NCBI GenBank assembly: GCA_035534555.1
Contig: DATLRQ010000163.1
Span: forward strand, 19,446 to 83,445
Length of the DNA: 64,000 nucleotides
Source of the DNA: Candidatus Micrarchaeaceae archaeon
GTDB taxonomy: Bacteria; Chloroflexota; Dormibacteria; Dormibacterales; Dormibacteraceae
Reading direction: 5' to 3'
In this document: piece by piece, positions 22,101-23,273 of the stretch
Numbering within the stretch: the first letter of the stretch is position 1
Layout of the letters: every line of letters starts with the position of its first letter
The notes under the pieces: generated by a model
What the model was told of the DNA's origin: nothing
The model's database searches: none
The model's input: the letters and a program-made list of their open reading frames with translations, nothing else
Position numbers and translations under genes: made by a program

Positions 22101-23273
22101 CAAGTTAAGAGATAACAAGTTGCATGCGGTGTCATCAAGAAAAACGAATTCACTACAAGGGTTAGTAGCATTTATTCTATCAGTGCTACTAACACAATTC
22201 CAGTCCTGAATGGTGGTATCAAATTGGAGTCCAGGGTCTCCGCAGATCCACGCCGCGTCGGCGATCTCGCGCCACAGCTTGCGGGCTTTAAAGGTGTCGA
22301 CGGTGCGGCCGCCGACGATGGCCTTGGTCTCCCAGTCCTTGTCCTTCTCGACCGCGTTCATGAACTCGTCGCTCACGCGCACCGAGTGATTGGCGTTCTG
22401 GAATTGGACCGAGTCGTACGCGCCGCCCGGCACGTTGAACCCAACGTTGTAGCCGGCTTCGATAAGCGCCCATGCCTTCTTCTCCTCTTCCGCCTTGCAG
22501 CGGATGAAGTCGAGGACGTCAGGGTGATCGGCGTTGAGGATGACCATCTTGGCCGCGCGCCGCGTGGTGCCGCCGGACTTGATCGAGCCCGCGAACGAGT
22601 CGTAGCCCTTCATGAAGGAGACGGGACCCGAGGCGGTGCCGCCGCCCGAGAGCTGCTCCTTCGACGACCGCAGCACCGAGAGGTTGGTGCCCGTGCCGCT
22701 GCCGAACTTGAACAGCATGCCTTCGGTCTTGACCAGGTCCAGGATCGACTCCATCGAGTCCTGCACCGAGTTGATGAAGCAGGCCGAGCCCTGCTGCGAG
22801 CGGCCGGGCACGCCGATGTTGAACCAGACCGGGCTGTTGAACGACGCCTGCTGGGTGACCAGGAGGAATCGGAGCTCCTCCGCCCAGTTCTCGGCATCCT
22901 CTTCGCCGGCGAAGTAGCCGCCCTCGCGGCCCCACTTCGCGAGCGTGTCGACGACCCGGTCGATGATCTGGCGGACGCTGGTCTCGCGCTCAGGGCTGTC
23001 GGCACTGCCGCGGAAGTACTTCTGTGCGACCACGTTGATCGCCAGCTGCGACCACGAGCGGGGGACCTCGACATCCTTTTGCTCGAAGATGACCTGGCCC
23101 TTCTCGCCGGTGATCCCCGCGGTGCGCCGCTCCCACTCGATCAGGTCGTAGGCGTGGCTGCCCGGAGGCGTGAAGAAACGCTCGAAGCGGAGCCCGGGCA
23201 CTTTCCCTGATTGTGCGCCCTTGTGGTTGCCGTTACGGCGGGCTGCGGCGAGGTCGGCTACATTCTTGGCCAT
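19167..23273 (-). CDS. nrdJ: class II (adenosylcobalamin-dependent) ribonucleotide reductase, intein-containing precursor
   Basis: 1368-aa ORF with the active-site region [47 protein letters not shown] is split by an intein. C-terminal Cys4 zinc finger CPDCG...CYKCLNCG. Confidence 0.95.
   Translation of the reverse strand: [1368 protein letters not shown]
20304..21599 (-). mobile_element. 432-aa intein with a LAGLIDADG homing-endonuclease domain inserted in nrdJ
   Basis: Starts at Cys1 ([13 protein letters not shown]). Block B is GTTTHRIKV. Two LAGLIDADG motifs ([26 protein letters not shown]). Ends FVSHN, followed by +1 Thr. Confidence 0.9.

Follow-up and report, generated by a model that had tools for sequence, protein, structure and literature searches.

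Codons 345–391 of the nrdJ gene in a 64,000-nucleotide stretch of DNA (the window) from a Candidatus Dormibacterota genome form an AT-rich patch that is probably a co-conversion tract, left by recombination that a homing endonuclease drove at an intein insertion site within the gene. nrdJ encodes a class II (B12-dependent) ribonucleotide reductase (RNR), and the insertion site, written NP/C with the slash marking the point of insertion, lies directly before the thiyl-radical cysteine C373. The site is empty in the window and occupied by a LAGLIDADG intein in sister alleles. Tracts of the same type, with differing ends, recur at the same place in other Dormibacterota alleles, and in one close relative the tract begins at the junction itself. 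This assignment rests on sequence comparison, and several observations set out below weigh against it.

An AT-rich patch over the catalytic loop of nrdJ

The NrdJ precursor has the features of a class II enzyme: the large-subunit barrel, the N-terminal domain, the NPC(S/G)E thiyl-radical loop and a Cys-rich tail. Its translation shows an NPCSE loop and the C-terminal motif CPDCG...CYKCLNCG, and its close homologues, named vitamin B12-dependent ribonucleotide reductase, carry PF08471, PF02867 and PF12637. Orthologues were collected by a back-translated scan with one genome per species, which gave 80 loci. The 64 that are nrdJ (74–97% identity) come nearly all from Candidatus Dormibacterota metagenome-assembled genomes with a GC content of 63–70%. 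Comparisons between alleles cover 66 distinct orthologue alleles.

Within the patch, 30 of the 47 codons end in A or T, giving a third-position GC content (GC3) of 17/47 (0.36), against 86 A/T-ending codons and a GC3 of 802/888 in the remaining extein (Fisher p = 9 × 10−18). Overall GC is 0.40 in the codon frame and 0.376 in the lowest 141-nt interval; over the whole 64 kb, intervals of this length have a mean of 0.657 and a standard deviation (SD) of 0.045, and the patch is the minimum, ∼6 SD below the mean. The codons ATA, AGA, TTA and ATT are confined to the patch among the nrdJ exteins, and GC-type codon usage resumes abruptly on both sides. The tract reaches ∼84 nt upstream of the junction and ∼57 nt downstream of it, with AT-type sequence on each flank (...ATAAATGCTACTAACCCT and TGTAGTGAATTCGTTTTTCTTGAT...).

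An initial annotation, made from the letters of the window alone, had put the patch at ∼40% GC with 17 of 47 codons ending in G or C, figures that an exact recount reproduced, the codons themselves also matching its transcription, and profiles of GC and GC3 along nrdJ agree with its statement that both flanks return at once to GC-type usage. It had described the patch as synonymous or mosaic. The patch is mosaic, as shown below, but it is not purely synonymous, since four residues differ from the closest relatives: V360C, P362S, N363S and G365D (NCVSSTD versus NVVPNTG). These changes lie 8–13 codons upstream of the junction; the AT-type codons between I367 and L391 encode the same residues as the clade consensus.

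The patch also contains a perfect inverted repeat (Table 1) that ends one codon before the NP/C junction. It is perfect only in the window, with one mismatch in L081 and two to three in L006, and is probably incidental.

AT-type tracts recur in other alleles and meet the NP/C junction

About 58 of the 66 orthologue alleles, including the closest relatives of the window, are GC-type over the patch codons, with a GC3 of ∼0.9. This excludes a conserved nucleotide-level constraint, a signal for mRNA structure or pausing and an embedded RNA. The initial annotation had named an AT-rich stretch common to high-GC orthologues as the observation that would speak against transfer; what was found instead is a small, polyphyletic set of sharers with variable ends. 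AT-type sequence recurs in L091, L006, L081, L032 and L033, and mini-tracts are present in L001 and L005 (Table 1). L032 and L033 came from the genome scan, and L081 and L082, the latter identical to L032, from a degenerate-pattern scan of metagenome contigs.

All six tracts of at least 8 codons, and the 3-codon mini-tract of L005, include or abut P372/C373, while their ends differ. The remnant in L001 (gtt ttt ctt gat) lies four codons downstream of the junction. No recurrent long GC3 dip was seen elsewhere in the exteins of the 66 alleles. The most direct indication of a junction-linked event is given by L091, the closest relative that has the resident second-site intein of the window, with flanks 93.5% identical to it. 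L091 is of pure GC-type consensus through N371 and then window-type at 18 of the 20 codons from P372 to L391, which places a recombination breakpoint within one codon of NP/C. In L032/L082, codons 390–393 read aat tta att aaa, with the change M392I; the tract there runs farther downstream than that of the window, so the donor was AT-type beyond the window's downstream boundary.

The patch and the rest of the gene have different nearest relatives, as a comparison of the kind suggested by the initial annotation brought out. Outside the patch, the window extein is closest to L001–L004 in every segment (93–96% nucleotide identity), aa 392–557 included. Inside it, the closest allele is L006, followed by L081 and L032: 122 of 141 nucleotides are shared with L006, against 98–103 of 141 with L001–L005, the closest relatives of the gene. 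By segment-wise identity and nearest-neighbour analysis, the patch-bearers are spread over at least five flank lineages, in each of which the nearest neighbours are without the patch. The distribution of the tract is incongruent with the phylogeny of the host gene, and the window's own closest relatives have either no patch or only part of it.

Tract copies resemble each other in codon type more than in exact sequence. Between distant lineages, A/T-ending codons are common to both alleles at 68–88% of tract positions and at 17–35% of those in the flanks (p from 1 × 10−4 to 5 × 10−3); for the close pair of the window and L091 the values are 83% and 47% (p = 0.03). At third positions the tracts diverge as much as their flanks, with swaps from one AT-type codon to another (tct/agt, ctt/tta, gca/gct). 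The tract copies thus do not derive recently from each other, and even so their codons have not shifted to the GC-rich usage of the hosts. The contigs that carry them stem from different projects or studies, and there are six further independent assemblies besides the window (L006, L032, L033, L081, L082 and L091).

An intein occupies the NP/C site in sister alleles

In a full-length protein search, alignments of Dormibacterota-type NrdJ precursors of ∼1770 and ∼1340 aa to the query broke at residue 372. Seven Dormibacterota-type alleles carry an intein of ∼401 aa exactly at NP/C, with Intein_splicing and LAGLIDADG_3 domains and the residues LVVAN before its downstream junction, and in these alleles C373 serves as the +1 residue. 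They were recovered as DNA in L083, L084, L085/L086, L087, L088, L089 and L090. The initial annotation had offered the cysteine as a possible +1 nucleophile for an insertion at NPC/SE; the role of Cys373 is as proposed, whereas the insertion point is NP/C and not NPC/S. NP/C is the most frequent intein site in RNRs, occupied by contiguous RIR1, NrdA and NrdJ inteins, and the split inteins NrdJ-1 and NrdJ-2 lie one residue downstream at NPC/S, with native exteins NPC/SEI (PMC2677866, PMC13123727).

The NP/C intein is 22% identical to the resident second-site intein of the window. Where lengths permit direct comparison, the NP/C inteins are 68–89% identical in nucleotides, which indicates that the intein has long been resident in the clade; their GC3 is 0.69–0.91. 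An exhaustive HMMER search found this intein family at NP/C in NrdJ of many lineages, none with the flank seen in the window.

The extein flanks of the occupied alleles are mostly GC-type, yet they are enriched in patch-type codons at the junction. In L084 the junction reads gct ACG aat cca before the intein and TGC TCC gaa TTC gtt after it. S374 is encoded by agt in four of the seven occupied alleles, and P372 by cca or cct in five. In L089, 11 patch-type codons lie within aa 347–393, against a background mean of 1.85 per allele, with cct gga, att, aat and aat cct before the intein and gtt, gat, tta tta agt, tta and aaa after it.

Inteins at the same hotspot are also present in nrdJ on IMG/VR viral contigs with a GC content of 0.28–0.64, none of them Dormibacterota-like. 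They lie at NP/C in L112, L115 and L119 and at NPC/C... in L116 and L117, with only the C-flank in L118, and are of at least two types (CQPSFATVLTP... and CFVGETLVETSEG...). For insertions at NP/C or NPC/S, the contigs range in GC content from 0.28 to 0.57. In addition, many short frameshifted NrdJ fragments over the patch region (65–125 aa; P0003, P0031) are found in public protein collections, and P0031 ends in ...NPCSRVRLP, right at the junction. Such fragments may reflect assembly breaks where occupied, empty and AT-type strains co-occur.

Table 1. Features of nrdJ in the window and in orthologous loci. Window features are given in nucleotide positions of the window, and patch-type codons in residue numbers.
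Feature	Location	Strand	Basis or remark
nrdJ, class II (B12-dependent) ribonucleotide reductase precursor, 1368 aa, one intein	19167..23273	-	ORF list and translation
Putative AT-type gene-conversion tract, codons G345–L391, longest version of a recurrent Dormibacterota nrdJ allele class	22101..22241	-	GC3 17/47
Upstream (N-extein-side) half-tract, codons 345–372	22158..22241	-	In window, L006 and L081; not in close relative L091
Downstream (C-extein-side) half-tract, codons 373–391	22101..22157	-	Nearly codon-for-codon common to L091
Empty NP/C intein insertion point, between bases 22158 and 22157 (P372, 22158–22160; C373, 22155–22157)	22155..22160	-	Occupied sister alleles
10-bp perfect inverted repeat, GTTAGTAGCA, 13-nt spacer, TGCTACTAAC	22161..22193	-	Self-blast and RNA fold
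Resident LAGLIDADG intein, G558/C559...N990/T991, 432 aa	20304..21599	-	Pfam Intein_splicing and LAGLIDADG_3
Patch-type codons, window	aa 345–389		
Patch-type codons, L006	aa 348–386		Mosaic
Patch-type codons, L081	aa 359–384		
Patch-type codons, L032 = L082	aa 362–393		Extra downstream AT-type codons and M392I
Patch-type codons, L033	aa 370–377		
Patch-type codons, L091	aa 372–389		
Patch-type codons, L005	aa 371–373		Mini-tract
Patch-type codons, L001	aa 377–379		Mini-tract
Two-intein allele, L083	1501–6831		
Two-intein allele, L087	1001–6325		
Two-intein allele, L088	1001–6286		
Two-intein allele, L089	1001–6346		
Two-intein allele, L090	1001–6319		

A model of homing and co-conversion

In the model that we favour, the endonuclease of the NP/C intein would cut an empty NP/C site, and repair of the double-strand break would copy the donor allele outward from the break, into the extein on one side or on both and over a variable distance, so that AT-type codons of the donor are brought in. 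The window allele would most likely descend from an occupied allele with AT-type flanks from which the intein was later lost. Loss could have occurred by a precise deletion between the TGY codons of the intein Cys1 and the extein Cys+1, or by conversion with an empty allele, and the half-tract of L091, with its GC-type left flank and TGC Cys codon, looks like a product of the latter. Copying of the tract without the intein would be a less likely route. The ultimate source would be a replicon, not yet sampled, that uses AT-rich codons and encodes a NrdJ protein of Dormibacterota type.

The initial annotation had suggested both a gene-conversion tract from a low-GC donor and a footprint of an intein at a second site in the gene. 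Of the former, the tract is supported by its mosaic nature and variable ends, and a distant low-GC phylum as donor is not, the encoded protein being Dormibacterota-type. Of the latter, the seven alleles with a LAGLIDADG intein at the site and the tracts that touch the junction speak for the footprint, and invasion followed by loss may plausibly have taken place in the window's own lineage.

The occupancy of the second site, APTG/C, bears on this. The second-site intein is present in 4/5 patch-bearers, 5/7 NP/C-occupied alleles and 3/61 others (Fisher p = 2 × 10−4, not corrected for phylogeny), and the empty patch-bearers thereby resemble the class of alleles that carries both inteins.

A number of observations tell against the co-conversion model, beginning with the lack of phylogenetic correction in this last test. 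The coincidence of tracts with the junction, evaluated within a 49-codon span, has only a modest significance (p ∼0.02). No occupied allele that was found has a full AT-type flank, most being GC-type except beside the junction, and no donor was found in the viral, genome, metagenome, phage, plasmid or protein collections searched. The tract of the window is AT-type through the junction (AAC cct tgt agt gaa), and removal of the intein by a GC-type empty allele would have overwritten it; an uninterrupted junction of this kind would need either the precise deletion or an AT-type empty donor. With a GC3 of 0.36 in the patch and of 0.69–0.91 in the NP/C inteins, the two do not look like one unit that arrived and ameliorated together. 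The AT-type state has also persisted without amelioration, contrary to a simple story in which tract and intein arrived together and the intein was then lost, and tract copies that are divergent yet all AT-rich would imply either that the AT-rich sources were several and divergent or that selection favours the AT-type state. The GC3 gap between patch and intein, the want of a fully AT-flanked occupied allele and the missing amelioration keep alive, as a minority view, the idea that the tract protects against the endonuclease.

Alternative explanations

According to that idea, which we consider distinctly less probable than co-conversion but the strongest of its competitors, the patch is a synonymously recoded homing site that the endonuclease cannot cut, spread among empty alleles by horizontal transfer and recombination and kept by selection. 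The core around NP/C would be held AT-type, while the ends would vary with each recombination event, and the tracts of at least 8 codons do have a common core at the junction and variable ends. Long tracts are found only in alleles empty at NP/C, the window differs from the reconstructed target of an occupied allele at ∼12 of 42 bases around the junction, and the AT-type codons of I367–L391, being synonymous, change the recognition region while preserving the protein. The persistence of A/T-ending codons in tracts that are as divergent at third positions as their flanks fits selection against amelioration. With a background GC3 of ∼0.95, any synonymous recoding of two-fold codons is necessarily AT-ward, and resistant empty alleles have been described for haloarchaeal MCM inteins (PMC10643990). 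However, 141 nt far exceeds any LAGLIDADG recognition site, and the codons AGA, ATA and TTA and the switch of serine from TCN to AGT point to an AT-rich genomic background and not to stepwise escape. Patch-type codons stand beside the intein in occupied alleles such as L089 and L084, and an occupied site can thus have AT-type flanks; the left half of L091 has been replaced exactly from the junction, as if an AT-type site had been broken or occupied; and most empty alleles are GC-type although the intein is in the clade. Co-conversion and resistance are not mutually exclusive. Taken to its full extent, the resistance idea would make the tract a horizontally spreading immunity cassette, with a recoded NP/C homing site set between recombination arms and held AT-rich by selection. 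This we regard as a speculative possibility; if true, it would be a natural, transferable anti-homing allele, and the allelic series would record an arms race between intein and host at a catalytic site where escape by amino-acid change is impossible.

The tract could also have nothing to do with homing. A piece of nrdJ from an AT-rich relative might have arrived by ordinary transfer and landed in the most conserved segment of NrdJ, which the patch region is, and since inteins are known to target such segments, their coincidence would be indirect; that neither a donor nor an occupied AT-type allele was found is in keeping with this. We think it unlikely, because it leaves unexplained why L091 has its breakpoint within one codon of NP/C, why patch-type codons are enriched right beside the intein where the site is occupied and why the second-site intein is enriched among patch-bearers. 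Comparable patches are not seen at other conserved segments in the 66 alleles, and AT-type and GC-type sequences are only ∼70% identical, making them a poor substrate for break-independent recombination. Weak mRNA structure or a translational pause before the active-site loop, which the initial annotation had listed, or an embedded RNA or promoter, would draw on the cluster of rare codons just before and over the catalytic loop and on the 10-bp inverted repeat. Such a functional nucleotide element is very improbable and effectively refuted by the ∼58 of 66 orthologues, closest relatives included, that are without the patch. Moreover, there is no Rfam match above noise and no promoter-like or terminator-like site in the patch, the folding z-scores of −1.26 (whole patch) and −0.81 are not significant against shuffled sequences, and the repeat is perfect in the window only. 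The other concern of the initial annotation, a chimeric contig into which nrdJ reads of an AT-rich organism were joined, starts from the probable metagenomic origin of the window, the ease with which conserved segments are mis-joined and the frameshifted NrdJ fragments in databases. It is scarcely credible given the same AT-type sequence at the same place in the six further assemblies, the Dormibacterota-type protein of the patch, unlike that of an AT-rich phylum, and boundaries that are in frame and lineage-specific.

Source of the AT-type sequence

The protein encoded by the patch is Dormibacterota-type (TIQDWN...) and unlike that of low-GC outgroup phyla (INDWHT..., ASNPCSEYMFLDD..., NLASLNL), to which nucleotide identity is at most 69%. 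The C360 and S362 variants are native in some Dormibacterota, in GC-type codons. A patch that is Dormibacterota-type in protein and AT-rich in codons points to an AT-rich replicon with a Dormibacterota-like nrdJ, for which a phage, a plasmid and a relative not yet sampled are candidates.

The searches for such a donor, by blastn as the initial annotation had advised and by pattern, returned further Dormibacterota patch-bearers and no donor. In viral contigs, neither an exact 69-mer of the patch nor a degenerate 26-mer had a match, and in metagenome contigs the degenerate pattern found only two more Dormibacterota patch-bearers, L081 and L082. Phage and plasmid records, searched by blastn with the patch, gave no match, nor did phages searched by megablast with the whole gene, and the best hit of a codon-agnostic viral scan was 70% identical, with none Dormibacterota-type. 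At the protein level, a 72-aa query of the patch region matched only short, frameshifted gene fragments, and when full-length NrdJ proteins were ranked by similarity to the concatenated patch peptide, the NCVSSTD signature was in none. Three proteins with intermediate signatures (P0161, P0252 and P0157) were considered as donor candidates and proved to be ordinary GC-type alleles. Within the 64-kb window itself the patch is not repeated and nrdJ has no paralogue, and hence there is no ectopic donor.

One further protein, P0296, is an 869-aa partial NrdJ available as protein sequence only. It has a degenerate mini-intein at NP/C, a second-site intein and the flank TIQNWNCVANTARINATNP. Its K/N/I-rich composition suggests a low-GC gene, and it is the nearest hint of a relative of an AT-rich donor lineage.

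The second-site intein and the surroundings of nrdJ

The resident intein of the window reads CLVGDSLV...FVSHN/T and has the hallmarks of a LAGLIDADG intein: Cys1, a terminal His-Asn, a +1 nucleophile, a Hint splicing domain and LAGLIDADG motifs (Pfam Intein_splicing, 3 × 10−12; LAGLIDADG_3, 2 × 10−17). Its site is polymorphic, being occupied in 7 of the 66 distinct orthologue alleles (L006, L008, L032 = L082, L047, L061 and L091), or 8 with the window; in orthologues without the intein, APTG is joined directly to TIGLMMDCD. The second-site inteins form one family, with 62–96% aa identity. Apparent different second-site inteins in L033 and L062 were ruled out as spurious tblastn extensions.

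Alleles of ∼1770 aa with LAGLIDADG inteins at both NP/C and APTG/C were found in L083, L087, L088, L089 and L090, and L084 and L085/L086 have the NP/C intein only, so that all four states of occupancy exist in the clade. The flanks of the second-site intein have GC-type codons, with no AT-type or co-conversion tract. Arrival of the patch and the resident intein as one block is ruled out, as aa 392–557 between them are native and L008, which carries the nearest relative of the resident intein, is without the patch. The two intein sites in this gene have separate histories.

The neighbourhood of nrdJ was compared in loci L083–L091 and L122 and is conserved: an rmuC-family gene lies upstream in 8 of these 10, where the contig reaches, and a GNAT acetyltransferase gene lies shortly downstream in 6. 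No endonuclease, phage or transposase gene adjoins nrdJ in these loci. In L083, two genes upstream of nrdJ and beyond rmuC, a gene that runs off the locus (1–116) encodes a dCMP/cytidine deaminase-family protein with Hint/Intein_splicing domains, which suggests that Dormibacterota commonly carry inteins in genes of nucleotide metabolism.

The window contains only one other stretch with a GC content below 0.48, an intergenic spacer (∼56974–57058) between the minus-strand ORFs 55909–56973 and 57059–57427. It has TAGGTTGC twice and an inverse copy of GCAACCT, is possibly an operator, has no tRNA nearby and is unrelated to the patch.

Comparison with known systems

Both co-conversion during homing and the survival of a tract whose element has been lost are documented, and the nrdJ case is probably a new instance. 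Closest in form are the co-conversion tracts of the homing group I intron in angiosperm mitochondrial cox1, where a rare gene without the intron keeps the full tract (PMC3192709). In both cases a short, mostly synonymous block of variable length lies beside the site of a homing element, is incongruent with the phylogeny of the host and sometimes persists in an allele without the element, which is read as a footprint. However, the nrdJ element is an intein, which is spliced at the protein level and has no route through RNA and cDNA to a precise loss, and its host is a bacterial chromosome. The nrdJ tract extends to both sides and over 141 nt, as opposed to the canonical 3–21 nt in cox1, and it is compositionally foreign (GC3 0.36 versus a background of 0.9) and far more AT-rich than the intein of the site.

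For haloarchaeal MCM and PolB inteins, homing with co-conversion of extein sequence, frequent gain and loss, and empty alleles that resist invasion have been reported (PMC10643990). As in nrdJ, LAGLIDADG-type inteins occupy two neighbouring sites of a conserved gene of replication or nucleotide metabolism with polymorphic occupancy, flanking extein DNA is incorporated in homing, and some empty alleles differ at the target. The haloarchaeal processes were shown experimentally and the resistance there lies in the protein, through a proline that follows the site, whereas those at nrdJ are deduced from sequence and the variant, mostly synonymous, extends over 47 codons in a usage that is foreign to its host.

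With other inteins at the RNR cysteine, the Dormibacterota intein shares the hotspot and the enzyme family, being inserted at NP/C with Cys as +1; the window differs in that its site is empty and only the signature in the flanking sequence is present. NrdJ-1 differs in lying one residue downstream and in being split by a free-standing endonuclease gene, an arrangement not seen in the Dormibacterota alleles. Free-standing endonucleases of phage T4, SegG and MobE, offer another parallel, in marker exclusion and localised gene conversion. A break in a conserved gene is repaired there from a resistant donor, transfer of the tract need not include the endonuclease gene, and such a process could yield a tract at an empty site without a step of loss. 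In contrast to T4, neither the window nor the loci examined have a free-standing endonuclease gene or a phage donor near nrdJ. A literature search for inteins in Dormibacterota gave no match. New in the present case are the uncultured phylum, a tract made visible by compositional contrast, a graded series of alleles, among them a half-tract that ends at the junction, and a tract that is more foreign than its element.

Significance for intein homing in nature

Theory of the homing cycle predicts that some empty sites keep a trace of past occupancy and that some withstand reinvasion. In the case of bacterial inteins these states are usually invisible, because the exteins of donor and recipient look alike; the compositional contrast makes the nrdJ tracts readable codon by codon. 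Within one uncultured phylum the alleles form a series of occupied sites, occupied sites with AT-type remnants in their flanks, an empty site with a full tract, an empty site with a half tract that ends at the junction, empty sites with remnants of three to four codons and naive GC-type sites, and this series gives lengths and directions of tracts for intein homing in nature. The GC-type and AT-type sites are also a testable pair of substrates for asking if synonymous recoding can confer immunity to an endonuclease at a catalytic site. More generally, sharp islands of codon usage in conserved genes provide a search image for homing-element activity, past or ongoing, in metagenomes, and the patch points to exchange of nrdJ sequence between Dormibacterota and an AT-rich replicon not yet sampled, possibly a phage or plasmid.

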